A stretch of 50,596 bases of DNA from sequence record OR767160, one strand, 5' to 3'. Source of the DNA: Escherichia phage vB-EcoS-XT34. Below the pieces are notes generated by a model. It was given only the letters and a program-made list of their open reading frames with translations, made no database searches and was not told the origin of the DNA. This document shows, piece after piece, positions 1,139 through 50,576 of this stretch (position 1 is the stretch's first letter; the number at the start of each line of letters is the position of its first letter). The position numbers were made by a program, and so were the translations under genes.

Positions 1139-1701
1139 TGGGGATGTTTGATTTTAACGAAGAGAAGCTGACAGATGAGCAGATTATGAAGATTGCTACG
1201 GAAGATGGGCTTCCACCACTACGAGTTGCAATCAATGCTAACGGATACCGACAGTCACAAAAGTACTGGTGCGAATTAGAAGTTATGCGTCGCGCAAACC
1301 TAAATCGTGAACAATGCGTCGTGGTTGAAAAGATCTGGAAGCAAGCGATAAATGGAAAAGGCGTTGTGGGAGTTCGCTCAACATATGAGGCGATCAGAAA
1401 GGTCCAGCCGTTCGTCGAGCGTAATGGAGTAATGAATAACCTGATTGACAATATCCTACCATCACTACAGGACGCGGGAATCATTTGCCTTATTGGTGAC
1501 AAGATATATGCACACCCATACCTGGTGGGCATGTATGGGAGAGACATTCACAAGTGGTGCGACTCATGGAGATCGGTTGAGCGCAAATCTCATAGCAAAT
1601 TGCAGTCAAGCTCAGACATGATTCATGGCTATGATGCCGATGAGGTGGAGAAGGCCATCCAGTTCTACCGGAAAGCGAAATCTCTCCTGAACGGTGAATA
1701 G
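1138..1701 (+). CDS. hypothetical protein, mini-paralog of the 527-aa protein at 46425-48008
   Basis: N-terminus MFDFNEEKL..LPPLRVAINANGYRQSQ and central NGKGVVGVRSTYEA..CLIGDKIY match the N- and C-terminal ends of the 527-aa protein; stop TAG lies inside the box motif. Confidence 0.6.
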   Translation: MGMFDFNEEKLTDEQIMKIATEDGLPPLRVAINANGYRQSQKYWCELEVMRRANLNREQCVVVEKIWKQAINGKGVVGVRSTYEAIRKVQPFVERNGVMNNLIDNILPSLQDAGIICLIGDKIYAHPYLVGMYGRDIHKWCDSWRSVERKSHSKLQSSSDMIHGYDADEVEKAIQFYRKAKSLLNGE

Positions 1702-1741
1702 CACGAATTGCTAAACAACAAATCGGGTAGTCAGCTATGAT
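1699..1741 (+). promoter_or_regulatory. box element (TAGCACGAATTGCTAAA) plus -10-like TATGAT at 22 nt
   Basis: palindromic box overlapping the stop codon, fixed spacing to a -10-like hexamer, then CA-rich leader and GAGGA before the next ATG. Confidence 0.5.
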
Positions 1742-1765
1742 TACCCTATCAACAACGGAGAGGAA

Positions 1766-1978
1766 ATGATTATGGAAACTGTACGCATTGACGATGTTCA
1801 CTTTGACCAAGCAGAGGTCAGAGTAACGATGGGAACCGTTCGCGGTCACGTTATCAGTCTTGACTTCGATCCTGACGACTACGGAGATTGTCAAACGCTG
1901 ATGCAATACTCACCTGACGCGGCCCGCAAGTTAGCGGCGGCGTTAATACTGGCGGCTGACGAGGCGGAGAAGCAATGA
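1766..1978 (+). CDS. hypothetical protein
   Basis: 70-aa ORF with GAGGA RBS, downstream of box element. Confidence 0.4.
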   Translation: MIMETVRIDDVHFDQAEVRVTMGTVRGHVISLDFDPDDYGDCQTLMQYSPDAARKLAAALILAADEAEKQ

Positions 1979-2126
1979 GTAGTCACCATAATGAGCACGT
2001 AATGCAGCTATACCGACATAATCTCAAGTCACTTGGTCGGTTGGGTAAGTAAAATAACGGGCCGTTGTATGCCCATTTAGAGGCACTACGTGAGCATGAA
2101 AATGGCTCACTGCATGGAGAATCAGA

Positions 2127-2345
2127 ATGAACAATGAAGAAATGATTAAGATCCGTATTATCAAGTCTCCGTATCAGGGCGTTGATAAAAGCAAGCTGCC
2201 AGTAGTGGCGATGGCCTGGAAATATGAAGAAGGTGATGCGGGTCCGATGTACATGGTTGACGCAGATTTCATTCCGGCGCTCAGCAAGAAAGGTATGCCA
2301 CCTGGCGACTGGCCCTTTGCAGAGGATGAGGTGGAAGTTTTATGA
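2127..2345 (+). CDS. hypothetical protein
   Basis: 72-aa ORF with RBS, co-oriented in early block. Confidence 0.4.
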   Translation: MNNEEMIKIRIIKSPYQGVDKSKLPVVAMAWKYEEGDAGPMYMVDADFIPALSKKGMPPGDWPFAEDEVEVL

Positions 2346-2458
2346 AATTCTATGACGTGATTAAACTGTTCATGCCACTGTTGATGCCACTGTTGATGCT
2401 TGGATTATCATTGGCTACCCTGTTCCTGGTGATTATTTTTCTGGTGTTTGTTAAATAG
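2342..2458 (+). CDS. small hydrophobic peptide (38 aa, candidate membrane protein)
   Basis: hand-translated MKFYDVIKLFMPLLMPLLMLGLSLATLFLVIIFLVFVK; ATGA overlap with upstream stop; contains a 12-bp tandem duplication; below the ORF track size cut-off. Confidence 0.3.
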   Translation: MKFYDVIKLFMPLLMPLLMLGLSLATLFLVIIFLVFVK

Positions 2459-2498
2459 CACGAATTGTTAAACCTTCCGCAAGGCCATTTGATATAGT
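2456..2498 (+). promoter_or_regulatory. box element (TAGCACGAATTGTTAAA) plus -10-like TATAGT at 22 nt
   Basis: same architecture as the other box elements. Confidence 0.5.
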
Positions 2499-2531
2499 GG
2501 CCTTATTGAAGCAAGCAACCAATCAGAGGAT

Positions 2532-2741
2532 TTGCAGATGTTTACTGAAAAAGAGTTTGAGCAGTTTTTCCTCCTGGTCAATATGTCAGGCAGCTCGGAC
2601 CAGATGGATCGCATAAACAGCCGTCTTGAGATGCCAAAGTTCATCGAAGCGGTAGGCCGCAAGACCTGCGATCGCATGTGGCACTTAATCGAGCATTACG
2701 GCGTAACACCAGCAACACTTAAATCGGAGCACATGAAATGA
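2532..2741 (+). CDS. hypothetical protein
   Basis: 69-aa ORF with RBS AGAGGA. Confidence 0.4.
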   Translation: MQMFTEKEFEQFFLLVNMSGSSDQMDRINSRLEMPKFIEAVGRKTCDRMWHLIEHYGVTPATLKSEHMK

Positions 2742-3118
2742 AAGTACGCTTACTTAACCCGTCAATCTACTCCCTCAAACCAAACCAGAAACTTAGCGAT
2801 TGGAGCAAGGTCGCCGATCCGGAAAGTTACCCCGTAGTGGTTGAGACTGATGATATCAGCCATGAACCTAAAATCATTCAGGATGCATTCAAGGATCGCG
2901 TTCTTGTCGGTGCTAGTGAGCTGGATCGTGTTTTTAACATGGGTGGAGGTTACAAACGAAGAAGCGACACGCAGCTCGGCTGGTGGAACAATCAGAATAA
3001 CTCAAGTCGCCCACATATCCCTAGTAACTCCTGGGAGCCAGTCGGCCCGTTCGACTACTGGAACAAATTAAAGGCATCACGCGAAGTTGGCGAAACTGTA
3101 GGTAAGGGTTACTTATGA
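2738..3118 (+). CDS. hypothetical protein
   Basis: 126-aa ORF, start overlaps the upstream stop. Confidence 0.45.
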   Translation: MKVRLLNPSIYSLKPNQKLSDWSKVADPESYPVVVETDDISHEPKIIQDAFKDRVLVGASELDRVFNMGGGYKRRSDTQLGWWNNQNNSSRPHIPSNSWEPVGPFDYWNKLKASREVGETVGKGYL

Positions 3119-3294
3119 TTATTTTATGCATCGTGCTTTACATCCTGGGCGCGCTTCCGGTTTATGCAATTGCAAAAGATGTTAGCAATAGTGACAACAA
3201 GTGGTACGACATGGTAATCGTTGCCGCTATCTGGCCCCTGATCGTTGCGTTCGGAATTGTTAAAGGCGTCTACCAAAAGTTGAAGGAGCAATAA
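3115..3294 (+). CDS. small hydrophobic protein (59 aa)
   Basis: hand-translated MIILCIVLYILGALPVYAIAKDVSNSDNKWYDMVIVAAIWPLIVAFGIVKGVYQKLKEQ; ATGA overlap with upstream stop; not in the ORF track. Confidence 0.35.
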   Translation: MIILCIVLYILGALPVYAIAKDVSNSDNKWYDMVIVAAIWPLIVAFGIVKGVYQKLKEQ

Positions 3295-3296
3295 TC

Positions 3297-3515
3297 ATGC
3301 AAGTCTACACTAACAGTAAAGGCATTGAATTTTGTGCGGTCGGCGATGTGGTCCTGCGCACTGGTGGCGGATACGGGATTATTAATATCTCAGGCATTAC
3401 GCAGGATCAGTTGGTAAAGGGTATCCAGGCTGGCATCTTTACCTATCACTCATCACTGACGGCTAAGCAGTATGTCACACTTGAAACTGCAATTCGCGCC
3501 GGATTCATCGAATAG
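3297..3515 (+). CDS. hypothetical protein
   Basis: 72-aa ORF, stop TAG is the first triplet of a box element. Confidence 0.4.
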   Translation: MQVYTNSKGIEFCAVGDVVLRTGGGYGIINISGITQDQLVKGIQAGIFTYHSSLTAKQYVTLETAIRAGFIE

Positions 3516-3556
3516 CACTTTTTTGTTAAAACTTGCTCGGAGACATTAGCTATAGT
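3513..3556 (+). promoter_or_regulatory. box element variant (TAGCAC-T6-TGTTAAA) plus -10-like TATAGT
   Basis: box with a 1-nt longer core, 22 nt to TATAGT. Confidence 0.45.
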
Positions 3557-3597
3557 GTCTCCTGTCAAGTGAACACAAACCAACTGAGGAATCACAT

Positions 3598-4353
3598 ATG
3601 AACAGCATCAACCGTTATATCCCTGTGTCAGTGCCAACCAGCGTCAATATTCACGGCGTCGGAATGCAATCCTGCGACGATGGAGCATGGGTATCCTACG
3701 CAATGCATAAAAAAGAAATCGAGTCCTTACAGGCACGTTTAAAGGCCTTAGAATCGACTCAAAAACATCAAATTTCTGCACCGTCGATTATCGCTGACCA
3801 TGTTGAGCAGGCAATCAAAGAGGCTGTAGGTAAGCTGGTGCACGAAGTATGTGAGAAATTGCTCAAGGATTTGCCTAAGTACAATGGCGATCCGTGTCAC
3901 AGCACTGTCGATGCATTCGTGAATGAGCTTGCGGCTGGCCCAGGGAAAACCGTTAAGGATGACACTTGCAGCGTCGAAGATGAATTGACGAAGAACGGAA
4001 AGTTCAATTTCGGGACTAATTTTGGTGAAGGTAAGTCGCTTACAATGTCAGTAGGCGAATGCGAGTCAGCGAATGATCGCAAGGTGGCTGTTTGCTACCA
4101 TGTTAACGGAAATATGTTTATCAACGGTTGCGAGTATGAGTATGAAGCTGATGAATGTGAGCCAGGGTGTGAGCCGAGCATTATTCATATCGTACAAGAT
4201 GCATTCGTCTCTGATTTAAAAGGAGATTATCGCTGGAATGCCAGGAAGATTGGTAAGAGGATTGGTGATATTATTGAGGACAAGGCAATTCTTAACGATA
4301 CATATGCGATCATGAGTCAAGATGGCGTAGTTGCTAAATTCTACATTAAATAG
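3598..4353 (+). CDS. hypothetical protein, Cys-rich C-terminal half
   Basis: 251-aa ORF, N-terminal predicted coiled coil, several Cys pairs near the C-terminus. Confidence 0.5.
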   Translation: MNSINRYIPVSVPTSVNIHGVGMQSCDDGAWVSYAMHKKEIESLQARLKALESTQKHQISAPSIIADHVEQAIKEAVGKLVHEVCEKLLKDLPKYNGDPCHSTVDAFVNELAAGPGKTVKDDTCSVEDELTKNGKFNFGTNFGEGKSLTMSVGECESANDRKVAVCYHVNGNMFINGCEYEYEADECEPGCEPSIIHIVQDAFVSDLKGDYRWNARKIGKRIGDIIEDKAILNDTYAIMSQDGVVAKFYIK

Positions 4354-4393
4354 CACGATTTGTTAAAAGGGGATTCATCCTGACTGGTATAAT
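4351..4393 (+). promoter_or_regulatory. box element (TAGCACGATTTGTTAAA) plus TGgTATAAT
   Basis: box overlapping stop, 22 nt to an extended -10-like TGgTATAAT. Confidence 0.5.
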
Positions 4394-4424
4394 CCCCACA
4401 TCAACCACACGGAAGGAAGTCAAA

Positions 4425-5042
4425 ATGAATCAGCTTTACACTATGATTAAGCATCACCTTCAAACGGAAGCGGTAAACAAGAAAGTTTACATATTTGATT
4501 TCGATGGTACTCTGTCGGACAAAACGCACCGCCTGCACAAGCTACCGACCAAGGATTTGCACCTCACTGAGTCATGGCTTGAATTTAACTCTCTGAGCAA
4601 GTTCGATACGCCATTCCAGGAAACGATTGACGTAATGAATGGCCTGTTCGCTTCCGGCGCTTTCATCATCGTGCTTACTGGTCGATCTGATGCAGTGGTT
4701 GAGGAATCAACGCAATGGCTTCATGATGCTGGCGCTAAATACAACGTTCTTGTCATGCGCCAGGCTGATGATAACCGCAAGGATACGATCATCAAGGAAG
4801 AGTTTTTACGATACATTGGATTGCACCGCATCACCGCAGCGTGGGATGATAGTTCGAATGTTATTGCGCACTTCCGAAGCCTGGGCATCACAACCTATCA
4901 GGTGTGTGACTATGGCGACAACGCGCACTCCGGCCTTAAGTCTCACGGCGTAGAGAAAGTTTGCGAGCACGAATTTAGCGATCCGCTACCTCCGCATGGT
5001 GTTCGCCAGTGCAAAAAATGCAATCTCGTAAGCGGTAAATAA
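4425..5042 (+). CDS. HAD-superfamily phosphatase (candidate nucleotidase or polynucleotide 3-phosphatase) with C-terminal Cys cluster
   Basis: motif I FDFDGTLSD near the N-terminus; C-terminal C..C..C..CKKC suggests a zinc ribbon. Confidence 0.55.
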   Translation: MNQLYTMIKHHLQTEAVNKKVYIFDFDGTLSDKTHRLHKLPTKDLHLTESWLEFNSLSKFDTPFQETIDVMNGLFASGAFIIVLTGRSDAVVEESTQWLHDAGAKYNVLVMRQADDNRKDTIIKEEFLRYIGLHRITAAWDDSSNVIAHFRSLGITTYQVCDYGDNAHSGLKSHGVEKVCEHEFSDPLPPHGVRQCKKCNLVSGK

Positions 5043-5091: not shown

Positions 5092-5712
5092 ATGTCAAAG
5101 ATTATCATTCTCAACGGACCTGCTGGCGTAGGTAAAGACACAATCGGCAATGCACTGGCAGCAGATTACAATTGCATCCCGACCAGCTTCAAGCGTCCGA
5201 TGTTTGAGATTGCCGCATCCATCCTTGGTGCCAGGGCTTTCTCAAAGTTCATCACGGCTTATGATGACCGAGATCAGAAAGAGATGCCTCAGAGCTTCCT
5301 TGGTGGCAAGACATGCCGAGAGTTCATGATCTGGATTAGCGAGTCGGTGGTCAAGCCGCTATTTGGCAACCAGCAATTCGGAAAGCTGATGAGCGAACAT
5401 ATCCAGCTGTGCGATGAAGGATTCTGTTTTGTTTGCACTGATGGCGGTTTTCCTGATGAGGTTATCCGCCTGGTGGAAGATGGTCACGATGTTACCCTTG
5501 TCCGCCTGTTCATGGATGGCAAGACTTTCGCGGGAGATAGCCGTGATTACATCCGCATCAAGGAATCGCACTTCCCTGATTACAAGAAATATAACGAGCA
5601 TGATGTGCATCTGGTAAATGGTGATGTTGATGATGGCGTCCTTAAAGTAGTTCGCGCTTGCTTGGTTAGTCCTTCAATGGATGATGATTGGGCAGACGAT
5701 ATTCCTTGGTAA
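5092..5712 (+). CDS. P-loop kinase, dNMP kinase-like
   Basis: MSKIIILNGPAGVGKDTIG resembles the GxxGxGKDT loop of phage deoxynucleoside monophosphate kinases; start chosen at the ATG with an AGGAA RBS rather than the track start at 5065. Confidence 0.55.
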   Translation: MSKIIILNGPAGVGKDTIGNALAADYNCIPTSFKRPMFEIAASILGARAFSKFITAYDDRDQKEMPQSFLGGKTCREFMIWISESVVKPLFGNQQFGKLMSEHIQLCDEGFCFVCTDGGFPDEVIRLVEDGHDVTLVRLFMDGKTFAGDSRDYIRIKESHFPDYKKYNEHDVHLVNGDVDDGVLKVVRACLVSPSMDDDWADDIPW

Positions 5713-5713
5713 A

Positions 5714-5756
5714 TAGCACGAATTGCTAAACCCGCTCCGGCGGGTTTTGTTATAGT
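5714..5756 (+). promoter_or_regulatory. box element (TAGCACGAATTGCTAAA) plus -10-like TATAGT
   Basis: canonical box, spacer contains the GC hairpin cccgc-tccg-gcggg, 22 nt to TATAGT. Confidence 0.5.
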
Positions 5757-5785
5757 TAGTTCACACCAAACGAGAGGAAAGCAAA

Positions 5786-5946: not shown

Positions 5947-6345
5947 ATGAAATTACGTTGCACAAAGATTAATCCATGCGCATCAGAATGGTTTAAGAAA
6001 GACTTTCAGGTTGGCAAGGTGTATGAGGCAGAGCGCAGTAGTGATATCTACACAGGCACAGTAGATGTTATTGGTGGTAGTGAAGGGATTGTTTGGTGCA
6101 TTATACAGAAAGGAAGCAAATTCAACCTAAGCATCGGAAGTGGACCTGCTGTCACGTTCGAGATGGTAAAGGGTACGCGTCGCATGGTTGTAACTGAAAA
6201 GCGTGTAACTGACCTGCGGTTTGATAAGCGACGAGTTCGCCGCCTTTGCCGACAGTACGGTAAGCGACGATTCACCAAACCTGAAATTTTCAGCTTTAAA
6301 ATATGGTTGGAGTTGAAAAAGATTGCACGAAATTACCAGCGATAG
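5947..6345 (+). CDS. hypothetical protein, basic C-terminus
   Basis: 132-aa ORF; N-terminus MKLRCTK..VGKVYEAE resembles the leftward ORF at 49333-49575. Confidence 0.45.
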   Translation: MKLRCTKINPCASEWFKKDFQVGKVYEAERSSDIYTGTVDVIGGSEGIVWCIIQKGSKFNLSIGSGPAVTFEMVKGTRRMVVTEKRVTDLRFDKRRVRRLCRQYGKRRFTKPEIFSFKIWLELKKIARNYQR

Positions 6346-6385
6346 CACTTTTTGTTAAAACTCATAATCGGGGTGGCTGTATAGT
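6343..6385 (+). promoter_or_regulatory. box element (TAGCAC-TTT-TTGTTAAAA) plus TATAGT and CATCGAAACGA leader
   Basis: box overlapping stop, 22 nt to TATAGT, leader CCCATCGAAACGAACGAGGA. Confidence 0.5.
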
Positions 6386-6415
6386 TACCCCATCGAAACG
6401 AACGAGGAATCAGAA

Positions 6416-9130: not shown

Positions 9131-10720
9131 ATGTCTAACAAGATATTGATTTGGGAAGATCTGACACCAAAGGAAAAGGCGGTAATAAAGGTGATGAGCG
9201 AAAGGTCGTTTAGTGACTTTATGCGCATATGGTTCGCGCTGATACAGGCTCAGAAGTTTAGATCTAACTGGCACTTCAACTACCTTTGCTGGAAGGTTGA
9301 GCAGATAATCAACGGTGAGATACAAAACATCATATTCAACATCACTCCAGGCTCCGGTAAGACTGAGATATTCTCTATACACATGCCAGTTTATTGCATG
9401 TTCAGAAGCGAGAAGATAAGGAACCTGAACCTATCGTTCTCTGATAGTTTGGTGAAGGATAACGGGATCAGGACTCGTGAAATTATAGGATCGGATGAGT
9501 TTCAGGAGCTGTGGCCATGCAAACTAGCCAAGGCGTCTGGTGGTGATATTACCGCTCTAAACCAAAAGGAAAAGGCATGGCTAACTCTAACCTCTCGCGC
9601 GATCGGTGGTCAGGTAACTGGTAAGCGTGGCGGTTATATGGATGATGGCTTCACCGGAATGCTGACGCTTGATGACCCTGAGAAGCCGAAAGACCTATAC
9701 TCAGCAGTAAAGAGAAAGGCTGGTCATACGCTGTTAAAGAACACCGTTCGATCGCGAAGAATGAATGACAAGACACCATGCGTTGTTGTCCAGCAGCGGC
9801 TACACGTAAACGATGCGACTTGGTTCCTGATGAATGGCGGTATGGGTGGGATGAAGTTTGAACAGGTAATCATTCCGGCGCTGGTAACTGAGGAATATAG
9901 AGACACGCTTCCTGACTGGTTGAAAGAGGAATTTGACAGAGACGTGCTATCGTCCCCATCGGTAATGATTGACGGTGTTGAGCACTTCTCTTTCTGGCCT
10001 GCGAAGGAAAGCGCAGAAAGCCTACTGGCGTTGCGCGAAGCTGACCTGTACACATTTGAGTCTCAGTATCAGCAGAAGCCAATCGCGCTTGGCGGTAACG
10101 CGTTTAAGTCGGACTGGTTCCAGTATTACGGCGACGGCGAAAAAGCCAACATGCCAAAACCGGATCGCTTCGAATACCTTTTTACCACTGCGGATACTGC
10201 GCAGAAGGCCGAGGAAATTCACGACTACAGCGTCTTTGTTTTGTGGGGCAAGTATAAGGATCGCGTATATTTCATCGACGGCATTCGCGGTAAGTGGGAA
10301 GCGCCGGAACTTGAAAAGATGGCCCTTAAGTTTTATGGCAACTGCTTCAAATGGGCGAAGGATAACAAGACTTCACTGCGCAAGGTTTACATTGAAGACA
10401 AGGCGAGCGGTACTGGCCTGATCCAGTCAATCAACAAGAAACTACCGATTGACATTACGCCAGTTCAGCGAAATACGGATAAGGTAACTCGCGCAATGGA
10501 CGCGGCGCCAATCATGAAAGCGGGGCGCTGTGTTTTTCCCGAGTCTCACGAAATGTTAAGTGACATGGAGGTTGAGTTGGTTTCATTCACGTTTGATGAT
10601 TCATCTCCTCACGATGACATTTGCGATAACGTCTTTGATGCTGTAAACTTTGAGATGAACATGTTGGATGATCCAGTATCTAGAATGAAGCGTTTAGCCG
10701 GATTAAGTAAGGGGATGTAA
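9131..10720 (+). CDS. terL: terminase large subunit
   Basis: 529 aa, N-terminal ATPase with Walker A TPGSGKT, C-terminal acidic nuclease-like region, followed by portal gene. Confidence 0.85.
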   Translation: MSNKILIWEDLTPKEKAVIKVMSERSFSDFMRIWFALIQAQKFRSNWHFNYLCWKVEQIINGEIQNIIFNITPGSGKTEIFSIHMPVYCMFRSEKIRNLNLSFSDSLVKDNGIRTREIIGSDEFQELWPCKLAKASGGDITALNQKEKAWLTLTSRAIGGQVTGKRGGYMDDGFTGMLTLDDPEKPKDLYSAVKRKAGHTLLKNTVRSRRMNDKTPCVVVQQRLHVNDATWFLMNGGMGGMKFEQVIIPALVTEEYRDTLPDWLKEEFDRDVLSSPSVMIDGVEHFSFWPAKESAESLLALREADLYTFESQYQQKPIALGGNAFKSDWFQYYGDGEKANMPKPDRFEYLFTTADTAQKAEEIHDYSVFVLWGKYKDRVYFIDGIRGKWEAPELEKMALKFYGNCFKWAKDNKTSLRKVYIEDKASGTGLIQSINKKLPIDITPVQRNTDKVTRAMDAAPIMKAGRCVFPESHEMLSDMEVELVSFTFDDSSPHDDICDNVFDAVNFEMNMLDDPVSRMKRLAGLSKGM

Positions 10721-14557: not shown

Positions 14558-15070
14558 ATGGCACTAATCAAAGCTTCTTATACGGTCAACCGTTCAAAGG
14601 CATATGCTGGTCAGCTGGCTGACACTTCTCTTTACAATGTCGACGGTGCTTGCGCTGCGGCTAAAGAAATTAAGGTTGGCGTTGTTGTTGCTCTTGACCC
14701 TACCGGAAAGGTTGTTGATGGTCACAAAGTCGTAACCGACACAATCTCGGCAGAAGCACCGAATCTGGTCGGCGTCGCCATCATGTCGCACGCATACTCT
14801 CCCGAAGGGGTTTATGATGAAGGCTCAGCAATCAACGTACTGACCAACGGTCGCGCATGGGTACTATGTGCTAAAGACCTGCCGGAAGTTAACAAGGAGT
14901 TTAACAAGCAGGTTTTCCTGACAACCTCAGGCACTGTGGCGGCAACTGGTATTGGCACCGCGTACACCACTACTGGCGAATGGTTGAAGACTGACGATGA
15001 GAACTTCGACATTATCAAAATCCAGGTTACTCAAGCTCAATTCCAGCTTCCGGCAAGTCCGGCAGCTTAA
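14558..15070 (+). CDS. candidate head decoration protein
   Basis: 170-aa ORF directly upstream of the major capsid gene (lambda D-E-like order), followed by a strong terminator. Confidence 0.4.
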   Translation: MALIKASYTVNRSKAYAGQLADTSLYNVDGACAAAKEIKVGVVVALDPTGKVVDGHKVVTDTISAEAPNLVGVAIMSHAYSPEGVYDEGSAINVLTNGRAWVLCAKDLPEVNKEFNKQVFLTTSGTVAATGIGTAYTTTGEWLKTDDENFDIIKIQVTQAQFQLPASPAA

Positions 15071-15087
15071 TAGCTGAACCACAATAT

Positions 15088-35517: not shown

Positions 35518-35542
35518 AATTGTAAATCCTTAATTTAGTTAA

Positions 35543-35557: not shown

Positions 35558-35583
35558 ATCGCAGTATACCATCTTTCAGGAAT

Positions 35584-37078: not shown

Positions 37079-37091
37079 TTTATCACCTCAA

Positions 37092-37133: not shown

Positions 37134-37179
37134 TGTACCAAATTAAACGCTACAAGACAATTTTTATAGGAATTTAGAT

Positions 37180-39174: not shown

Positions 39175-39653
39175 ATTGGAATGATGTTTTCGAGTACGTA
39201 GAAGGAAAGATTTTCTGGAAGGATAGTGGGAAAGGTAGGAAGTCTGGTGCTGAATTTGGTTGCATATGCAATACGTGGGGTTATGTTATTGGCACCCTTA
39301 GAGGAAGGACTGTTAGGGCCAATCGTTTAATATGGGAGATGCATAATGGGCCAATACCAAACGGAATGCAAATTGACCACATCAATCACATTAGGCATGA
39401 TAATAGAATTGAGAACTTGAGGCTTGTTAGTAATCAGGAAAACAGCAAAAACAACTCAATGCGAAAGAATAATACTTCTGGAGTTACAGGTGTTTGCTGG
39501 AATAAACAAAAAGGAAAGTGGATGGCTAAAATAAAAGTTGATTACAAAACCATAAATCTTGGTTTGTATTCAGACATTGAAAAGGCCGTGGAAGCAAGAA
39601 AGCAAGCTGAGGAATTATACGGTTTTCATGAAAATCACGGGGTTAATTTATGA
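39171..39653 (+). CDS. HNH homing endonuclease with AP2-like domain (copy 4)
   Basis: NRLIWEM..IDHINHIRHDNRIENLRLVS and EARKQAEELYGFHENHG. Confidence 0.75.
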   Translation: MNWNDVFEYVEGKIFWKDSGKGRKSGAEFGCICNTWGYVIGTLRGRTVRANRLIWEMHNGPIPNGMQIDHINHIRHDNRIENLRLVSNQENSKNNSMRKNNTSGVTGVCWNKQKGKWMAKIKVDYKTINLGLYSDIEKAVEARKQAEELYGFHENHGVNL

Positions 39654-40069
39654 AAATTACAGATAAAGTTGATTACATTGAGTTTTACCCGGGCCCGGTT
39701 AAGTCATGCCATAAAGAGGATGACGAACAAATCTTTTGCTCTGACTGGGTTAAGTACAACTACCCAGAGATGGTATTTTTCCACACCGTGAATGAGGGTA
39801 AGAAAACCATTGGACAAGCAAGAAAAGACCAGGCAAAGGGTTTGCTCAAGGGTGTGTCAGACTGTATTTTTTTGATACCTGAATCCGTGAGAGGGAGGCA
39901 TCCATTTGGCGCAATAGAGCTAAAGAGGGCTGGAAAAACACAAGCCAGTCCAGTCAGTGCCGAACAGAAGTCCTTCCTTAAAAGCGTAAGAGAATCAGGA
40001 GGTTTTGCGGCTGTGGCATACGGACGTGAAGGTTTTCTTGCGGCATTTAAAGAGATGATTTCAAAATAG
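39650..40069 (+). CDS. VRR-NUC domain nuclease
   Basis: 139 aa, PD-(D/E)XK-like core with D..ELK motif (DCIFLIP..GAIELKRAG). Confidence 0.6.
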   Translation: MKITDKVDYIEFYPGPVKSCHKEDDEQIFCSDWVKYNYPEMVFFHTVNEGKKTIGQARKDQAKGLLKGVSDCIFLIPESVRGRHPFGAIELKRAGKTQASPVSAEQKSFLKSVRESGGFAAVAYGREGFLAAFKEMISK

Positions 40070-40109
40070 CACGAATTGCTAAAGACGAATCTCAAGGATG
40101 AGATACTAT
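40067..40109 (+). promoter_or_regulatory. box element (TAGCACGAATTGCTAAA) plus -10-like TACTAT
   Basis: box overlapping the VRR-NUC stop, 22 nt to TACTAT, CA-rich leader. Confidence 0.45.
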
Positions 40110-40139
40110 TACCACATCAAAACGAAATGAGTAAAAGAT

Positions 40140-40643
40140 ATGAAATGGAGAAATCGAATACAATATAAAGATGGTTCACTTTACTGGCTTGAGGCGAAAG
40201 ATAAAAGCAAATCATTCAATCATCGACTTTCTGGAAAGAAAATAGGAACGGTTATGAAGGATGGTTACATGAGATTCAGGTTTAATGATAAAGCATACTC
40301 ATGCAGCAGGGTGACGTGGGAGTACTTTAATGGAGAAATTCCTATCGGAATGGAGATTGATCATATAAACCATATAAGAGATGATAACAGAATTGAAAAT
40401 TTAAGATTGGTATCAAGATCTGATAATCAAAAAAATCTAAGTATATCAAAAAACAACAAATCAGGAGTAACTGGCGTCACATACCATAAACCTTCTGGTT
40501 TATGGTCCGCCAGAATAAACTCTGGAGGAAGAAGGTTTGAGCTTGGCTACTACAAAACCATAGAAGAAGCAAGGTTGGCAAGAATTGATGCTCAAAATGA
40601 ATTTGGTTTTCATGATAATCATGGAAAGAAAATAAAAAATTAA
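40140..40643 (+). CDS. HNH homing endonuclease with AP2-like domain (copy 5)
   Basis: SRVTWEY..IDHINHIRDDNRIENLRLVS and EARLARIDAQNEFGFHDNHG. Confidence 0.75.
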   Translation: MKWRNRIQYKDGSLYWLEAKDKSKSFNHRLSGKKIGTVMKDGYMRFRFNDKAYSCSRVTWEYFNGEIPIGMEIDHINHIRDDNRIENLRLVSRSDNQKNLSISKNNKSGVTGVTYHKPSGLWSARINSGGRRFELGYYKTIEEARLARIDAQNEFGFHDNHGKKIKN

Positions 40644-41388: not shown

Positions 41389-41619
41389 ATGAATAAGAAA
41401 GTTAATTTAAATGAAGATGGTCAGTTCCTTTTATTCCGTGCACTTGTTTGCCAAAATCTCTCAGATCTTGGGTTTAAGGGTGACGCCTGGGTATTCTCTG
41501 AATCACTTGATATGTCATTTGATTGCATAAAGGATGAGGAATATCGCTACTGGAAAGACTTAATAAAAAATGATGCCTCTGACTATAAGCGAGATTGCCC
41601 AGAAGATTTCGCAGAATAG
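41389..41619 (+). CDS. hypothetical protein
   Basis: 76 aa from the internal ATG with RBS; stop TAG begins a box element. Confidence 0.4.
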   Translation: MNKKVNLNEDGQFLLFRALVCQNLSDLGFKGDAWVFSESLDMSFDCIKDEEYRYWKDLIKNDASDYKRDCPEDFAE

Positions 41620-41659
41620 CACGAATTGCTAAACATACCCGCCACCGCGCGGGTATACT
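41617..41659 (+). promoter_or_regulatory. box element (TAGCACGAATTGCTAAA) plus -10-like TATACT
   Basis: spacer of 22 nt containing GC hairpin cccgc-caccgc-gcggg. Confidence 0.5.
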
Positions 41660-41689
41660 TCTTTCATACCAACGAGACGAGGAATCATC

Positions 41690-42713: not shown

Positions 42714-43856
42714 ATGGCTATTCAGAAGATTAGTGACGAACAATTCATTGCTGAGCGCGAAGCTGGTAAAACACTCCGCCAGATTGCCCAGGAATACGGG
42801 ATGAACATTCGAACTGTTGAGCAGCGCTCAAGCCGCCTGGCAAAGCGCGGTGAGTTCCACGGGAATAAACACGTAAGCGTACACGTGCCAGAGGGCTTTC
42901 AGGTTAAAGGCACGTCAACCATGATTCGCGCTGACGGTTCCGAGGTCGTGCGCTGGGTTAAGACCGATCAGGACAAGGAGAAATTAGCCGCCATGATGGA
43001 TGCTGCTATTGAAGCATTCTGTGACGAACTCCCGCGCGCAGCTCCTCAGCCTATTCTTGGCGAGCCTCACTATGATGAGAATCTCCTGGCCCTGTATCCA
43101 GTTTTCGATCTCCACATCGGAGCAATGGCCCACAAGCATGAATGCGGCGAGAATTACAGCACCGACATCTCTGAGAAAGTTCTCAAGAACTTCTTTGATT
43201 ACTCGGTTGGTGTATCTCCTAAAGCAAAGAAAGCCGTATTGCTAATCGGCGGTGACTTCCTTCACTCAGACGGCCTGGACGCTGTAACGCCTGCAAGCGG
43301 TCACGTACTGGATCAGGATAGTCGATACGCCAAGCTAGTTCACGTTGCAATCCGTTCCGTACGCCGCGCGGTGGCGCTAATGCTGGATAAGCACGAAGAG
43401 GTCGAAATCCAGATCATTGAAGGTAACCATGACCAGGCTGGCATGATTTGGTTGCGTGCAGCAATGGCGGCATACTTTGAAGATGAGGCGCGCGTAACGG
43501 TTGATACGTCTCCTATGATTCTTCACCGTACAAAGTGGGGCAAAACATTGCTTGGATACACTCATGGTCACACCATGAAGAAAGCTGATACTCGACTGGC
43601 GGCAATGGCGACTGACTTCCGCGAAGAGTTCGGTACGAGCAAGTATATTTACACGCATAGTGGCCATTGGCACCATCAGACGATCACGGAAGGAACTTTG
43701 GGGATTGATGAGGTTCACGGTCAGCTTGGCGCGAAAGATGCATATGCGGCGCGCGGCGGTTGGCGCTCATATCGCCAGGCGGCGGTAATTGTCTACTCCA
43801 AGGAGTTCGGCGAAGTCGGTCGCTTCGTTTACCGTCCTGAAATGAGCGACATCTGA
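42714..43856 (+). CDS. HTH-containing calcineurin-like metallophosphoesterase
   Basis: N-terminal HTH-like LRQIAQEYGMNIRTVEQR; phosphoesterase motifs DLHIG, GGDFLHSD, GNHDQ; a duplicate start at 42487 lies in the pre-gap copy. Confidence 0.55.
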   Translation: MAIQKISDEQFIAEREAGKTLRQIAQEYGMNIRTVEQRSSRLAKRGEFHGNKHVSVHVPEGFQVKGTSTMIRADGSEVVRWVKTDQDKEKLAAMMDAAIEAFCDELPRAAPQPILGEPHYDENLLALYPVFDLHIGAMAHKHECGENYSTDISEKVLKNFFDYSVGVSPKAKKAVLLIGGDFLHSDGLDAVTPASGHVLDQDSRYAKLVHVAIRSVRRAVALMLDKHEEVEIQIIEGNHDQAGMIWLRAAMAAYFEDEARVTVDTSPMILHRTKWGKTLLGYTHGHTMKKADTRLAAMATDFREEFGTSKYIYTHSGHWHHQTITEGTLGIDEVHGQLGAKDAYAARGGWRSYRQAAVIVYSKEFGEVGRFVYRPEMSDI

Positions 43857-43900
43857 TAGCACGAATTGCCTAACACTATAGCGCCGGAAGGCGCTATATT
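43857..43900 (+). promoter_or_regulatory. box element variant (TAGCACGAATTGCCTAA) plus -10-like TATATT
   Basis: TGA-TAG double stop; spacing about 23 nt. Confidence 0.4.
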
Positions 43901-43927
43901 CATATCTCAATCACAGAGGATTCAATC

Positions 43928-44448: not shown

Positions 44449-44949
44449 ATGAAGCAGAAGCTTGTAATTAGTGCGGCGACGGCTGCAGCAATATACATTG
44501 CAGCACCGATCATTGAGCTTGTAGAAGGCGTGGAGAACAAGCCATACATGGACATTGCTGGAGTGCCTACGGTCTGCGCTGGAGTTACTGGCTCCGATGT
44601 GATATGGGGCAAGAGCTACAGTAACAGGGAGTGCCGGAACTTGCTGGAGAAGCACATTCAGATTCATGGCAAGCATGTGCAGAATGCAGTCACCTACCCT
44701 ATATCCCCAAAGACAAGGGCGGCGCTAATCAGTTTTAGCTACAACGTTGGCGGATACGCCATGAGGAAGTCTACATCTGTAAGGCTAATTAACCAGGGTA
44801 AGGTTGAGCAGGGTTGTAAGGCTCTAGGTATGTGGACAAAAGCAAGAGTAAATGGGAGGCTTGTTACAGTAAAGGGTTTAGTAAACCGAAGGAATGAAGA
44901 GATTAAGCTATGCATTGAGGGTGAGATGGAAATGAAAAGGGGCAATTAA
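44449..44949 (+). CDS. endolysin, lysozyme-like with N-terminal signal-anchor-release (SAR)-type domain
   Basis: 166 aa; weakly hydrophobic Ala/Gly-rich N-terminus followed by E..D..T catalytic spacing (IELVEGVENKPYMDIAGVPTVC). Confidence 0.7.
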   Translation: MKQKLVISAATAAAIYIAAPIIELVEGVENKPYMDIAGVPTVCAGVTGSDVIWGKSYSNRECRNLLEKHIQIHGKHVQNAVTYPISPKTRAALISFSYNVGGYAMRKSTSVRLINQGKVEQGCKALGMWTKARVNGRLVTVKGLVNRRNEEIKLCIEGEMEMKRGN

Positions 44950-45476
44950 GCCCCGTGATTTTCGTGAAAGCCTAGCTCCATCTCTGCGGCTTTTCTAGCT
45001 AAGACTGCATCATCGAATGAGTCTCCGTAGTAAAGCCGCTTATTCTTGCCATTAATTTTTATCTGAGAGAACCATTTACCCCTTGCTGAGTCCCAGCACA
45101 CACCAACGACTCCGGATGTATTTAAAGAAGACATTGGCATGTTCATTTCCTGATCAGACCTTGATGCCAGTCTTAGGTTTTCAATTCTATTATCATCCTT
45201 AATGTGGTTTATATGATCGATCTCTATACCATCAGGTATCTGGCCTTTGTGCATTTCCCATATAATCCTATGCACCTTCCTGTACCTGTTGTTAAATCTA
45301 ACCAATAGGTATCCATGTTTATCTGGAGTTCCAACCATTTTTCCGGCATTTCTTGAGTTGTACTGATTGCTCATGTCATCACGACGCTTCCTCCATAAAT
45401 TATTTCCGTCATAATGAAAGTATTTTGACCAGTTCATGTATACTATCCTCTCTAGTTTCATTTCATCAACAATCAT
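44946..45476 (-). CDS. HNH homing endonuclease with AP2-like domain (copy 6)
   Basis: HRIIWEM..IDHINHIKDDNRIENLRLAS and FDDAVLARKAAEMELGFHENHG; on the opposite strand, between endolysin and spanin genes. Confidence 0.75.
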   Translation of the reverse strand: MIVDEMKLERIVYMNWSKYFHYDGNNLWRKRRDDMSNQYNSRNAGKMVGTPDKHGYLLVRFNNRYRKVHRIIWEMHKGQIPDGIEIDHINHIKDDNRIENLRLASRSDQEMNMPMSSLNTSGVVGVCWDSARGKWFSQIKINGKNKRLYYGDSFDDAVLARKAAEMELGFHENHGA

Positions 45477-45493
45477 ATCAAAGGTGGTAATTT

Positions 45494-45883
45494 ATGTTTT
45501 TGCAAAAAATGCTATTATGCTCTGTAATTCTGCTTTCAGGTTGTTCGGCGACATCTGCGCTGACTGGTTTAATTGGCAGCAAGCCAGAAATCAGTGCGCA
45601 GGCTGGGGCTGAGAACGTGAAGCAAACGGTAGGTGTTACAGGAAAGGTGGATAAGTCAAACGACAACGACACCACTATCAAAGATTCAAAGGTAGGAAAG
45701 GTTGATACGTCAAACGGGAAATCTGTCAGCACATCAAGCATCAAGGCTGACACTATCGTTGCTGATAAGATTGAAATAAGGAATGATGAAGGAGGTGGAA
45801 GGATTGCGTTTGGACTTGCTTTAATTCTAATTAGCCTATTGCTTTTCTCATTTACAATATGGACTACTTTTCGCAAAAAATAA
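45494..45883 (+). CDS. unimolecular spanin (u-spanin) candidate
   Basis: N-terminal lipoprotein signal with lipobox LLSGC-S and a single C-terminal transmembrane helix, as in the phage T1 u-spanin. Confidence 0.55.
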   Translation: MFLQKMLLCSVILLSGCSATSALTGLIGSKPEISAQAGAENVKQTVGVTGKVDKSNDNDTTIKDSKVGKVDTSNGKSVSTSSIKADTIVADKIEIRNDEGGGRIAFGLALILISLLLFSFTIWTTFRKK

Positions 45884-45886
45884 AAG

Positions 45887-45910
45887 GAGCCGAAAGGCTC
45901 CCTTTTTTTA
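45887..45910 (+). terminator. rho-independent terminator
   Basis: ggagcc-gaaa-ggctcc followed by CTTTTTTT; same hairpin as at 15088. Confidence 0.7.
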
Positions 45911-46046
45911 CCCAAATCTTTGCACCAGTAGCAACAATTCACCTTCATTATTGCATAGAGTATGCTCATCACGTCGTCCGGCACGCATTGATGAATTTAG
46001 CATTGACAGCAGCGCTTGATTAAGCCCGTCCTCACTAATCCCATTC

Positions 46047-46421
46047 TCAGAACTGCATCTGATTATCGCGTCGATTACGACCTGGCTCTCCAAATAACTC
46101 TCCATCGCTCATCTTCTCTATGTTCATCATCTCCCATGTGTAGCGATCGTTCTCACCGCCATAGCACTTGAAATGAAATTCAAATGGCCTTTTTTGCGCG
46201 CCTTTGGACCAGTACCAGTTGTTCACGCCGTCAAGGTATCCTTCTCCCATGCATCTTGCAATAAACTCCTTTGATGATGACGATGCGAAATAGCGAGGCG
46301 TAACTCCAGCAGCCTTAGCCAGTCGCTCACACTCCCTGTGCTTGTATATGAAAACCGCCAGGTGCTGACGGTTGAATTTTTCATAGCCTTCGCAAAAACG
46401 GTACAGATCCAGAAGAAACAT
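46047..46421 (-). CDS. hypothetical protein
   Basis: 124-aa ORF co-oriented with the leftward block; overlaps the alternative 45908-46105 ORF, which I rank lower. Confidence 0.4.
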   Translation of the reverse strand: MFLLDLYRFCEGYEKFNRQHLAVFIYKHRECERLAKAAGVTPRYFASSSSKEFIARCMGEGYLDGVNNWYWSKGAQKRPFEFHFKCYGGENDRYTWEMMNIEKMSDGELFGEPGRNRRDNQMQF

Positions 46422-48433: not shown

Positions 48434-48469
48434 TTTGTTTGCCTTTTTGTGTTTCGTTTCGATGAGATC

Positions 48470-48512
48470 AATATACAGGAAAAGCCCCGAAGGGCTTTAG
48501 CAATTAGTGCTA
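48470..48512 (-). promoter_or_regulatory. box element (TAGCACTAATTGCTAAA) plus TATATT and CTCATCGAAACGA leader, leftward
   Basis: minus-strand box TAG is the stop codon of the methyltransferase-like gene; 22-nt spacer with hairpin agccc-ttcg-gggct. Confidence 0.5.
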
Positions 48513-49178
48513 TTTGTTGCTTTCATATAGTGCGCGAGCAAAACCTTCCGGTGTTAATGAGCGTAGCACCTTTGTCTTTGCAGACTTTCCGCCGCAGTAT
48601 TTCCAGGCCCAAAAGAATCCAATGCTCTCAACTGGTTTTTTAATCGGCTCAACAAATCCATTTCCACACCAAATACAAGTCTTTTTGTTGTAGGCATTGC
48701 GAGTGGGCATCCTTGGGTGATAAACCTCATCGTGATCAATGTAACCGCCATAATCGCAAGGGTGGAAATAGAAGTCCGGTTTACGCCATAGAGTTGACAG
48801 TTTGCCTACAGGATTCTCAACCATCCATGGGGCATTAAAGTGATTGCCGACTTCCTCGACGAGCTTCGCATTAGCCAGGGCATACGCCAGTTCATCCTCA
48901 CTGCGCTCATGCTGTGATCCAGACTGAGAGAACAGCGTGCAATCAGGGAATCCGATAACCATCTGCGCCGGAGGCAGGCCGAGCAATTCACACTTGGTGA
49001 TGAAATCCTTGTCAATCCACATGTTGACGTAGTGAATGTTCTCATGCTTCATCTTGATGTGATATTCGCCATGATTGCCGGAGTCCGCGTTGAAGCAGTA
49101 GACGGTGTGACCATCTTCCGCCCATGGGAGGCCAGCGATACCAGAACCGTCAAAAAGACAATAAATTACCTTTTTCAT
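48510..49178 (-). CDS. compact C5-cytosine methyltransferase-like protein
   Basis: 222 aa with motif I-like LFDGSGIAG, motif IV-like GFPDCTLFSQSG and ENV-like MVENPVG; too short for a canonical target-recognition domain. Confidence 0.5.
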   Translation of the reverse strand: MKKVIYCLFDGSGIAGLPWAEDGHTVYCFNADSGNHGEYHIKMKHENIHYVNMWIDKDFITKCELLGLPPAQMVIGFPDCTLFSQSGSQHERSEDELAYALANAKLVEEVGNHFNAPWMVENPVGKLSTLWRKPDFYFHPCDYGGYIDHDEVYHPRMPTRNAYNKKTCIWCGNGFVEPIKKPVESIGFFWAWKYCGGKSAKTKVLRSLTPEGFARALYESNK

Positions 49179-49333: not shown

Positions 49334-49575
49334 TATTTCACCTTGTCAAAAGTTGCAATACCAGGGATAAACATTCCTACCTCCCAGCCTGCGATAGCAA
49401 TCCAGCCAGAATCGTGCTTGTGCGGTCGCTCAGCGCCATTAATAACCCATTCGTTCGGTATTGTCTTGCCGTTAATTATTAGCGCCTCAGCGTCGTATAC
49501 AGAGCCTTTTACGAATGGAGTAAGAACCTTCTTGTCTGTGCTGGTGATGCAGTTAGTGCAGCGAATTTTCATCAT
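49333..49575 (-). CDS. hypothetical protein
   Basis: 80 aa; N-terminus MKIRCTN..KGSVYDAEA resembles the protein at 5947-6345. Confidence 0.4.
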   Translation of the reverse strand: MMKIRCTNCITSTDKKVLTPFVKGSVYDAEALIINGKTIPNEWVINGAERPHKHDSGWIAIAGWEVGMFIPGIATFDKVK

Positions 49576-49581
49576 GATTCC

Positions 49582-49797
49582 TTAGAACGGTATTCCGTCG
49601 TCAAATTTTAAGCGGTAGTCGAAGTCATCCCCGATTCCGTCCACTGACTGGTTGCTTTCGCTTTCCAGATCCATATCCATGACGCCCAACGCGTCATCGA
49701 GTTCGATGCATCCGTAAGCAACCTTGAGCGCCCACACTTCATTTAGTCCGGCTTCAAGTGCCGCGCGGTGGCGGCTCCAGAAATTATCTTGATGCAC
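49582..49797 (-). CDS. hypothetical acidic protein
   Basis: 71-aa ORF in the leftward block. Confidence 0.4.
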   Translation of the reverse strand: MHQDNFWSRHRAALEAGLNEVWALKVAYGCIELDDALGVMDMDLESESNQSVDGIGDDFDYRLKFDDGIPF

Positions 49798-49799
49798 TG

Positions 49800-50024
49800 T
49801 TAGCTCCAGGAGTTGATGTAAAGTGAGTTATCGTTTAGCAGGTTTACCATCTCGGCGCGGGTAAGGCTGCGGATGATTGATCCTGGATGAGTGCCAACAA
49901 CGTAGCGGTTAAACTCTCGGCGCGTGATGGTGATTTGGCTTACGCCTGCGGCACGGTCCAGCTTGATGATTGCGCGGCCTTTTGCTTCGATGTGTGCTAC
50001 TACGTTCTGAGCTTTAACTGACAT
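49800..50024 (-). CDS. hypothetical protein
   Basis: 74-aa ORF with RBS AAAGAGGAAG, downstream of a leftward box element. Confidence 0.45.
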   Translation of the reverse strand: MSVKAQNVVAHIEAKGRAIIKLDRAAGVSQITITRREFNRYVVGTHPGSIIRSLTRAEMVNLLNDNSLYINSWS

Positions 50025-50061
50025 TTTTACTTCCTCTTTGTGTACTTCGTTTCGATGAAAT

Positions 50062-50104
50062 TATTATGCCTCAATCCGTGAGGCTTCGTTTAGCAATTCG
50101 TGCT
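50062..50104 (-). promoter_or_regulatory. box element (TAGCACGAATTGCTAAA) plus CATAAT and TTCATCGAAACGA leader, leftward
   Basis: minus-strand canonical box, hairpin gcctca-cgga-ttgaggc in the spacer; coordinates within about 2 nt. Confidence 0.5.
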
Positions 50105-50107
50105 ATT

Positions 50108-50305
50108 TCAGAATTTAACTTTCTCGACTACCTGGACCATCTCGTATCCAAGGCGGTAGCTGTCACCAAGGATTAATCGGCCCATGAACTGATCGTTAGT
50201 GAAGCTCTCCTTACCCATGGTCCGAAGCGATCCGTGATGGATGATAGTGTCACCAACCTTCACGTCGTTCTTGTGTTTCAAAACAATTTTGTTAGCCATT
50301 ATCAA
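50108..50305 (-). CDS. hypothetical protein
   Basis: 65-aa ORF; the ATG two codons inside the track TTG start is the likelier start. Confidence 0.4.
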   Translation of the reverse strand: MIMANKIVLKHKNDVKVGDTIIHHGSLRTMGKESFTNDQFMGRLILGDSYRLGYEMVQVVEKVKF

Positions 50306-50312
50306 GTTCTCC

Positions 50313-50495
50313 TTACATGTGTTTCAGGTAGAAAGCGATTTCACGGATGTTGTCTTCTGGATGAGCCTTCACGACTACCGCGAACATCTTCTCAACCAGT
50401 TCCTTGGCGCTCTCAGGGTTATAACCTTCCTGGACCAGAAGAGCAATAGTGTTTTCGATGGTAACTGGTGAGTTCTTGTTGATGCGCTTAGCCAT
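50313..50495 (-). CDS. hypothetical protein
   Basis: 60-aa ORF with RBS upstream, downstream of a leftward box element. Confidence 0.4.
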   Translation of the reverse strand: MAKRINKNSPVTIENTIALLVQEGYNPESAKELVEKMFAVVVKAHPEDNIREIAFYLKHM

Positions 50496-50531
50496 GATAA
50501 TTTCCTTTAGTGCGTGTCGTTTCGATGAGGT

Positions 50532-50576
50532 AATAATAGCGAATCACACCTGATCGGTCATTAGCAAAAAGTGCTA
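50532..50576 (-). promoter_or_regulatory. box element (TAGCAC-TTT-TTGCTAA) plus TATTAT and CTCATCGAAACGA leader, leftward
   Basis: minus-strand box near the right end of the window, same spacing and leader as the other leftward copies. Confidence 0.45.

Follow-up and report, generated by a model that had tools for sequence, protein, structure and literature searches.

Repeated boxes in a T1-like coliphage genome as putative class II marbox promoters fused to stem-loop attenuators

Escherichia phage vB-EcoS-XT34 is a T1-like coliphage of the Drexlerviridae whose closest records are 88–94% identical to it, and its genome is collinear with that of the Nouzillyvirus ESCO41. Its sequence (record OR767160; 50,596 nucleotides, the whole stretch analysed here and called the window) carries many copies of a short box, TAGCAC-N3-TTGCTA-AA. 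A first-pass annotation made from the letters alone had listed about 16 near-identical boxes and judged them beyond chance, and a control with dinucleotide-preserving shuffles of the window agrees: the 17-mer TAGCACNNNTTGCTAAA gives 17 matches at up to two mismatches where 0.47 are expected (largest shuffle 3), and seven without mismatch against 0.00, the control for chance being shuffled sequence. All 16 positions hold a copy (the one put at 50104 lies at 50105), including that at 3513, which has an extra T between its half-sites and was recognised by eye, while three copies had been overlooked: 15156–15172 (-), 45498–45514 (-) and the intragenic 39032–39048 (+). The curated total is 19 copies, 17 of promoter type and two reversed. 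As had also been noticed, the upstream gene ends with the TAG of the box in nine copies (1699, 2456, 3513, 4351, 6343, 31980, 40067, 41617 and 48512). Many copies (e.g., 2452–2472, 4347–4367 and 5710–5730; consensus TAAATAGCACnnnTTGCTAAA) hold stops in all three frames, made up by box and flank from an upstream TAA, the TAG and the TAA inside CTAAA, and such a unit therefore ends translation whatever the upstream frame.

The key anatomical fact, absent from the first-pass annotation, is a fixed distance of 20 bp between the box and a -10 hexamer. All 17 promoter-type copies share this layout, and none departs from a single orientation with respect to the -10 and the following ATG. Aligned, they read aATAGCACgaaTTGcTAAA, 20 bp, TATAnT, 5–6 nt and CAtCgAAACGa, followed by a Shine-Dalgarno sequence and ATG; from the T of TAG to the next ATG there are 67–88 nt in 16 of the 17 units and ~139 nt in the intragenic unit at 39032. 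The resemblance of TTGCTA to a -35 hexamer is misleading: its end lies 22 bp from the -10, with no -10 at 16–18 bp, and it therefore cannot serve as a normal -35, which disposes of a canonical sigma-70 promoter built on it. Positional statistics were drawn from a pooled set of 69 units from four genomes, and the same layout recurs in a wider set of 85 units, drawn from seven genomes that represent six genera of the Drexlerviridae. Among the 69, GCA and the -10 are offset by 35 nt in 51, by 36 nt in 10 and by 34 nt in 8; there is no usable -35, the sequence closest to TTGACA in the expected place agreeing with it at an average of 2.8 of 6 positions, and the -10 is mostly TATAGT, TATTAT, TATGAT or TATAAT, extended by TGn in 26. 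A moderately conserved block, (tacc)CATCGAAACGAa, lies ~6–20 nt after the -10 in several genera, at the predicted 5' end of the transcript (in the window, for example, at 6390–6401, 48464–48453 and 50057–50046); its role may be that of an operator, of a leader or of an initial transcribed sequence.

The box and its flanks, a site of 20 bp, are referred to as a marbox in what follows, after the host site to which they are compared below. On the plus strand, the unit at 1698–1748 consists of the marbox ATAGCACGAATTGCTAAACA (1698–1717) and the -10 TATGAT (1736–1741) within a stem-loop (z = -5.7); its TAG ends the open reading frame (ORF) 1138–1701 and its predicted target is ORF 1766–1978. The next unit (2455–2505) has a TTGTTA-variant marbox (2455–2474), the -10 TATAGT (2493–2498) and a stem-loop with z = -3.5. 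At 3512–3563 the extra T stands between the GCAC and TTG half-sites, the -10 is TATAGT (3551–3556), the TAG is the stop of ORF 3297–3515 and ORF 3598–4353 is the predicted target. The window here shows six T's between GCAC and GTTAAA (3513–3530), against five and a normal spacing in the ESCO41 orthologue (3022–3041); the sixth, which places the half-sites 1 bp further apart, may have arisen by slippage in the homopolymer or by an error in sequencing. The unit at 4350–4400 (marbox 4350–4369; extended -10 TGgTATAAT, hexamer 4388–4393) is predicted to serve the polynucleotide kinase-like ORF 4425–5042. It is followed by the unit at 5713–5763, in which the marbox (5713–5732) and the -10 TATAGT (5751–5756) are separated by a terminator-like spacer hairpin, CCCGCtccgGCGGGTTTT, and by that at 6342–6392, where the marbox GCACTTTTTGTTAAA and the -10 TATAGT (6380–6385) precede CATCGAAACGAA.

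Further along the same strand, the unit at 31979–32028 takes its TAG from the stop of the exonuclease VIII-like ORF 30942–31982 and has the -10 TATAAT (32016–32021), with the Erf-like ORF 32059–32715 as predicted target. That at 37091–37140 (-10 TAGTAT, 37128–37133) sits in the divergent region between a regulator gene on the minus strand (36605–37078) and the helicase-like ORF 37180–39174, and the 3' end of the latter ORF holds the intragenic unit 39031–39081 (GCACGAATTGGCAAA; -10 TATGAT, 39069–39074), which is kept in ESCO41 at 40042 and lies upstream of ORF 39171–39653, an HNH endonuclease by synteny with ESCO41 gp42. At 40066–40116 the TAG is the stop of ORF 39650–40069, the -10 is TACTAT (40104–40109) and the predicted target is the HNH-AP2 endonuclease ORF 40140–40643. 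Two more plus-strand units follow: 41616–41666, with the spacer hairpin ACCCGCcaccgcGCGGGT and the -10 TATACT (41654–41659), and 43856–43907, whose TTGCCTAA variant comes directly after the stop of the SbcD-like ORF 42714–43856 and whose -10 is TATATT (43895–43900). The minus strand contributes the unit at 30458–30509 (TAGTTA variant; -10 TATAGT, 30465–30470), with the Cor-like lipoprotein ORF 30194–30424 as predicted target, and that at 45465–45515, where GCATTTTTTGCAAAA lies inside the 3' end of ORF 45478–45984 and the -10 TATGAT (45472–45477) is predicted to drive the HNH-AP2 endonuclease ORF 44946–45437. At 48463–48513 the methyltransferase-like ORF 48510–49178 ends with the TAG of the box, and a terminator-like hairpin, GCCCttcgGGGCTTTT, accompanies the -10 TATATT (48470–48475). 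The last two are 50056–50106 (marbox 50087–50106; -10 CATAAT, 50063–50068; then CATCGAAACGAA) and 50526–50577 (...TTGCTAAT; -10 TATTAT, 50533–50538), the latter with ORF 50313–50495 as predicted target.

The box with its flanks agrees at every specified position with two published consensus sequences of the marbox of Escherichia coli, 5'-gcannwwntgnnaaa-3' (PMC12052159) and, independently, 5'-GCAHWWWWTGYYAAA-3' (PMC6900184). MarA, SoxS and Rob bind to the marbox as monomers (PMC6900184), and it is therefore asymmetric and oriented. In scans with these published degenerate consensus sequences, GCANNWWNTGNNAAA finds 14 matches in the window at no mismatch against 0.38 in shuffles, and GCAHWWWWTGYYAAA 14 at up to one mismatch against 1.43. 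The boxes of the TTT class (GCACTTTTTGYTAAA) agree with GCAHWWWWTGYYAAA at 15 of 15 positions, as does the marbox GCACTTTTTGTTAAA of the unit at 6342–6392. Across the 69 units, variation is confined to the degenerate n, W and Y positions of the consensus. Numbered from the G of GCA, position 5 is G or T in 63, positions 6 and 7 are A or T in 68 each and position 11 is C or T in 65, while G1, A3, G10 and A13–15 are invariant or nearly so and C2 is found in 68.

The resemblance extends to the promoter as a whole. Class II marbox promoters carry a forward site that overlaps the -35 region, clusters near -41 and comes without a recognisable -35 (PMC10268841), and the paradigm is micF, whose marbox is centred at -41.5 (PMC9638938). 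In E. coli K-12, micF reads GCACTGAATGTCAAA-N20-TAGAAT-N7-G(+1), a gap of 20 bp as in the phage units, and if transcription starts 7–8 nt after the -10, the centre of the 20-bp phage marbox lies at about -40.5 to -41.5. The phage units and the class II promoters thus have in common the consensus, the forward orientation, the 20-bp gap, a centre near -41 and the lack of a -35. The phage units differ in being present in a virulent phage at ~17 per 50 kb, in matching the consensus far more closely than most host sites do, and in being fused to a stop codon and a stem-loop.

Related T1-like genomes, where the first-pass annotation had suggested looking, hold the element too. The pattern GCANNWWNTGNNAAA gives 15–20 matches at no mismatch in each of six other Drexlerviridae genomes of five genera (a Nouzillyvirus, Tunavirus T1, two members of Webervirus, one of the Braunvirinae and one Hanrivervirus), with a shuffle expectation of ~0.4–0.5 in the three relatives that were shuffled. 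The stricter combination of a marbox, exactly N20 and TAnnnT is matched 6–13 times in each of the six. In IMG/VR, nearly all of the matches listed for the composite pattern marbox-N20-TATnnT fall in contigs of ~41–53 kb or shorter. The sole much larger contig among them, IMGVR_UViG_648019609_000001 (174,436 bp), has its match at 10042–10085, which may be due to chance or to other phage groups using the same device.

The repeat itself is already published. In phage TLS, 18 intergenic copies of a 21-nt direct repeat with the consensus aaATAGCACnnnTTGnTAAAA follow the direction of transcription ~76 nt upstream of start codons and are divided by their central triplet into the subclasses A, T and G, and the same type of repeat is reported in T1, Rtp and Rogue1 (PMC11447400, 2024). 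Just three sigma-70-like intergenic promoters were predictable in TLS, and the authors left open what the repeat does, with stoperators, enhancer sites and UP elements as options (PMC11447400). On this description the TLS repeat is the same element as the box in the window. What is new is the marbox reading: the available part of the paper contains neither the match to the marbox nor the fixed 20-bp distance to the -10, the stem-loops or the reversed copies at late promoters (PMC11447400), and our literature search returned nothing that links the repeat to MarA, SoxS or Rob and no map of start sites for a T1-like phage.

A second feature of the units is a stable hairpin between the box and the start site, present in 10 of the 17 units of the window (z < -1.5, a value reached by 9% of random segments). 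Over the seven genomes, 57–82% of units fold at -8 kcal/mol or below, compared with 6–18% of random 34-mers (p = 5e-22), and the stem encloses the -10 in 37 of the 85 units. The stems vary in sequence from unit to unit with pairing kept, often as GGGG...CCCC (e.g., 1718–1747, 2475–2504, 4370–4399, 6362–6391 and 31999–32027, and likewise in the six relatives); the classic look of a terminator with a T-run is seen in only two stem-loops of the window, 5733–5752 and 48476–48493. The closest parallel is with the PeSL cassettes of the T4-type phages RB49 and phi1, in which transcription from upstream was shown to be terminated by the stem-loops and genes are shuffled by means of the cassettes (PMC2839356). 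The parts come in the same order, namely a stop codon, an upstream element, a stem-loop that lies over the -10 or between it and the -35, a Shine-Dalgarno sequence and the ATG (PMC2839356), and in both cases intergenic cassettes recur in association with small orphan genes and with mosaic boundaries. PeSLs, however, have a normal -35, whose place in the phage units appears to be taken by an activator-type site. With regard to mosaicism, 8 of about 80 ends of homology blocks (relative to ESCO41 and the Braunvirinae genome) lie within 60 nt of a box, where about 3.7 are expected; the Rha/anti-repressor gene of ESCO41 (30195–30970) has a box on each side, while the window has one (30458–30509); and the two Pfam-confirmed HNH-AP2 genes (40140–40643 and 44946–45437) as well as 39171–39653 each have a unit of their own. 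Units at some mosaic boundaries and endonuclease genes with their own units suggest PeSL-like shuffling of cassettes.

The two reversed copies belong to a different setting, and they correct two statements of the first-pass annotation, that the box always points along local transcription and that it is absent from the structural module: 15172 (-) and 35543 (+) both oppose the local genes, and the former lies directly upstream of the major capsid gene. The late capsid-gene promoter (15149–15176, plus strand) is close to consensus, with the -35 TTGACC at 15149–15154 and the -10 TATTAT at 15171–15176, 48 nt upstream of the major capsid ATG. A reversed marbox (15156–15172, minus strand) exactly fills its 16-bp spacer, the whole reading TTGACC, g-TTTAACAAAAAATGC, TATTAT (with TGc). 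This arrangement is found in four of the seven genomes, namely the window, T1 (~15060–15090), ESCO41 (~15075–15102) and the Hanrivervirus (L006, ~46230–46260), and the marbox is perfect in the three relatives; Webervirus has a degenerate form of the arrangement, and the Braunvirinae genome lacks it. The other reversed marbox (35543–35559, plus strand, against the local genes) adjoins an extended -10 on the minus strand, TGcTATTAA (35544–35539), upstream of the tail-fibre ORF 33235–35517, and is kept in ESCO41 at 36151. We infer a tail-fibre promoter at 35539–35559, between the primase terminator and the tail-fibre gene; the extended -10 lies only ~22 nt before the ATG, and the geometry of start site and leader is uncertain. 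Phage T1 has a further perfect marbox at 18833–18847 (-), where the gene for the major tail protein is followed by that for the tape-measure chaperone. This copy runs antisense to the late genes, has TAAGAT at the distance typical of class II and is not matched by any copy in the window; an antisense promoter may lie there.

A precedent for the reversed copies is the pbpG promoter of E. coli, where a marbox in the spacer leads to direct repression by MarA, SoxS and Rob (PMC12052159). The capsid promoter has its marbox in the spacer as pbpG does, whereas the tail-fibre copy adjoins the -10; unlike at pbpG, the spacer arrangement belongs to some genera only, and repression in the phage is suggested by analogy. 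By that analogy, one host factor could serve as activator at the early units and keep the two late promoters down.

Who reads the boxes is suggested by what the phage seems to lack. The host encodes MarA and Rob. A tblastn search with MarA against 50,697 phage records listed no Drexlerviridae, and phmmer together with an hmmsearch of a MarA and Rob profile, run on four genomes translated in all six frames, yielded nothing but hits with E > 0.2, so that a MarA-like activator encoded by the phage was looked for with all three tools and not found. Since no phage activator was found, we propose that early expression is outsourced to the host. The sole transcription regulator recognised among 16 ORFs scanned (Pfam, PHROGs) is a Cro/C2-like helix-turn-helix protein, phrog_2856, on the minus strand at 36605–37078. 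The start of its putative recognition helix, which we assigned ourselves from the sequence pattern and not by a tool, differs between genera (TRQ, SNQ, SIQ, SQQ, TPQ), and the box is unchanged. A conserved host reader explains this invariance better than a co-evolving phage pair, which points to Rob, MarA or SoxS as the binding protein. In the divergent control region between the regulator and helicase genes (37079–37179), an inverted repeat GGTA-N6-TACC lies over the -10 of the helicase unit and is a possible operator for the Cro/C2-like regulator.

We consider that the boxes are probably class II marbox promoters which drive early phage transcription through host Rob, MarA or SoxS, and the best-supported reading of the units is that of marboxes fused to putative stem-loop attenuators. 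Each box would be an asymmetric site of ~20 bp for one monomer of Rob, MarA or SoxS (RamA in Klebsiella and Salmonella). In the 17 forward copies, the marbox near -41 would replace the -35, 20 bp upstream of TATAnT, and the bound activator would recruit RNA polymerase through region 4 of sigma-70 and the alpha subunit's C-terminal domain, as shown for micF. Transcription is predicted to start ~7 nt after the -10, at the conserved ATCGAAACGA, with the A of ATCGAAAC as the 5' end, ~47–48 nt downstream of the G of GCAC; a leader of ~25–35 nt would lead into the next small early, replication or recombination gene. Rob is the candidate that is made constitutively, and MarA and SoxS would add a stress input. 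At the two reversed copies in the capsid and tail-fibre promoters, the same factor would repress. The sequences themselves show the match, the geometry, the conservation across the family and, within the searches made, the lack of a phage homologue; binding, start sites, the sign of regulation and the choice among the three host proteins are proposed on that basis.

Several observations weigh against this proposal. T1-like phages grow fast in ordinary media, and MarA and SoxS are scarce in unstressed cells. Our literature search returned no report of rob, marA or soxS mutants affecting T1-like phages. The start sites are inferred from the -10 hexamers, and units with an extended -10 may in some cases fire without an activator. 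The phage consensus is tighter than that of the host, having ATA upstream, T at position 8 as well as at 12 and a partial palindrome, and this could point to another reader; a palindrome centred near -42 also fits activation of the lambda cI type. The Cro/C2-like regulator is kept in all seven genomes and has its own sigma-70-type promoter, TTGTCT-N17-TACAAT at 37160 (-), which overlaps the helicase marbox unit. Rob, moreover, has been reported to reside in aggregates in cells without inducer (PMC10268841).

The last observations on the phage side lead to the alternative that survives best, although we regard it as unlikely: the box would be the operator of a Cro/C2-like dimer on TAGCA-N5-TGCTA near -42, which activates as cI does at PRM or shuts off the early promoters. 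Having a canonical sigma-70-type promoter of its own, the regulator could be made first, and five-base-pair arms ~10 bp apart suit a helix-turn-helix dimer whose site, centred near -42, has the geometry of lambda PRM. The first-pass annotation had likewise called the box palindromic and deduced a dimeric, possibly phage helix-turn-helix, protein from the inverted repeat. Five pairs can indeed form, but the two-fold symmetry fails on closer inspection, as the invariant G3 of the box faces the complementary C13 in only 40 of the 69 units, T in 25 and A or G in 4, and C6/T10 and A0/A16 (the A...AAA flanks) are conserved yet non-complementary. The orientation to the -10 is fixed in 17 of 17 promoter-type copies, the residues of the putative recognition helix change between genera under a constant box, and the position-by-position match to the site of a monomeric host activator would be left unexplained. 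The deduction of a dimer is thus not supported, while the wider idea holds that these are non-random, oriented, promoter-linked and putative protein-binding sites defining one regulon. Lambda cI at PRM and T4 MotA/AsiA are precedents for an activator over or near the -35 region that replaces a poor -35. The symmetry of the cI dimer is unlike the asymmetry of the box, and for MotA/AsiA, with its box at -30, the spacing of the phage units does not fit.

It is improbable, more so than a phage dimer, that RNA polymerase alone reads the box as a UP-like element or a displaced -35, which would make the units strong constitutive early promoters. TTGCTA does resemble TTGACA, the -10 hexamers are near consensus with TGn in the 26 units mentioned, and UP elements are among the options given in the TLS study (PMC11447400). 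The reversed copies in late promoters are left unexplained by this model. The 22 bp that separate TTGCTA from the -10 are outside the usual spacer range of sigma-70, and UP elements are A/T-rich, unlike the invariant GCAC. If read-through transcripts ended in an RNA hairpin made by the box (UAGCA-loop-UGCUA), this element, acting in processing, termination or antitermination, would account for a strand-specific box that overlaps stop codons and whose common C-to-T change keeps a G·U pair, but it is very improbable, being weak (-3.7 kcal/mol at best, -1.3 in TTGTTA copies and lost in other variants), without a compensatory change in 69 units or a match to an Rfam family, and silent on the fixed distance to the -10.

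Three further known elements were compared and rejected. The sigma-54 promoter has the consensus TGGCAC-N5-TTGC, in which the elements GG and GC keep a fixed -24/-12 spacing; the box, TAGCAC-N3-TTGC, has AG for GG and is 2 bp too short. The T4 MotA box is of the TGCTT type, centred at -30 with 11–13 bp to the -10, and depends on MotA and AsiA of the phage, whereas TTGCTA ends 22 bp before the -10. Stoperators of the mycobacteriophage L5 type are oriented, asymmetric sites at which a bound phage repressor blocks elongation, and they keep no set distance to a -10; the fixed 20-bp distance seen here argues for promoters rather than roadblocks, and the phage family is virulent (PMC11447400), although no search aimed at a repressor of the L5 gp71 type was made.

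Returning to host-read class II promoters, we tentatively suggest a broader scheme, which we hold to be possible but doubtful as a whole. The Drexlerviridae, as a whole family of virulent enterobacterial phages, would have no early-promoter recognition of their own and would borrow the host activators of stress and antibiotic resistance, Rob, MarA and SoxS, via ~15–20 near-perfect class II marboxes per genome. Bound to the reversed sites, the same factor would hold the capsid and tail-fibre genes off until it is titrated by phage DNA as this replicates, and the result would be a switch from early to late expression. How efficiently the phages infect would in that case vary with bile, salicylate, oxidative or antibiotic stress.

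If confirmed, the marbox reading would answer the published question of what the repeat does. It would explain how dozens of early genes are switched on within minutes in phages that have no polymerase, sigma factor or recognisable early promoters of their own, and why TLS yielded just three predicted sigma-70-like promoters. The units would also provide compact activator-dependent promoter-terminator parts for synthetic biology. Infection by these phages could be tied to the host regulon for multidrug efflux and porins, a link that would bear on the combination of phage therapy with antibiotics and on the behaviour of the phages in the bile-rich gut.

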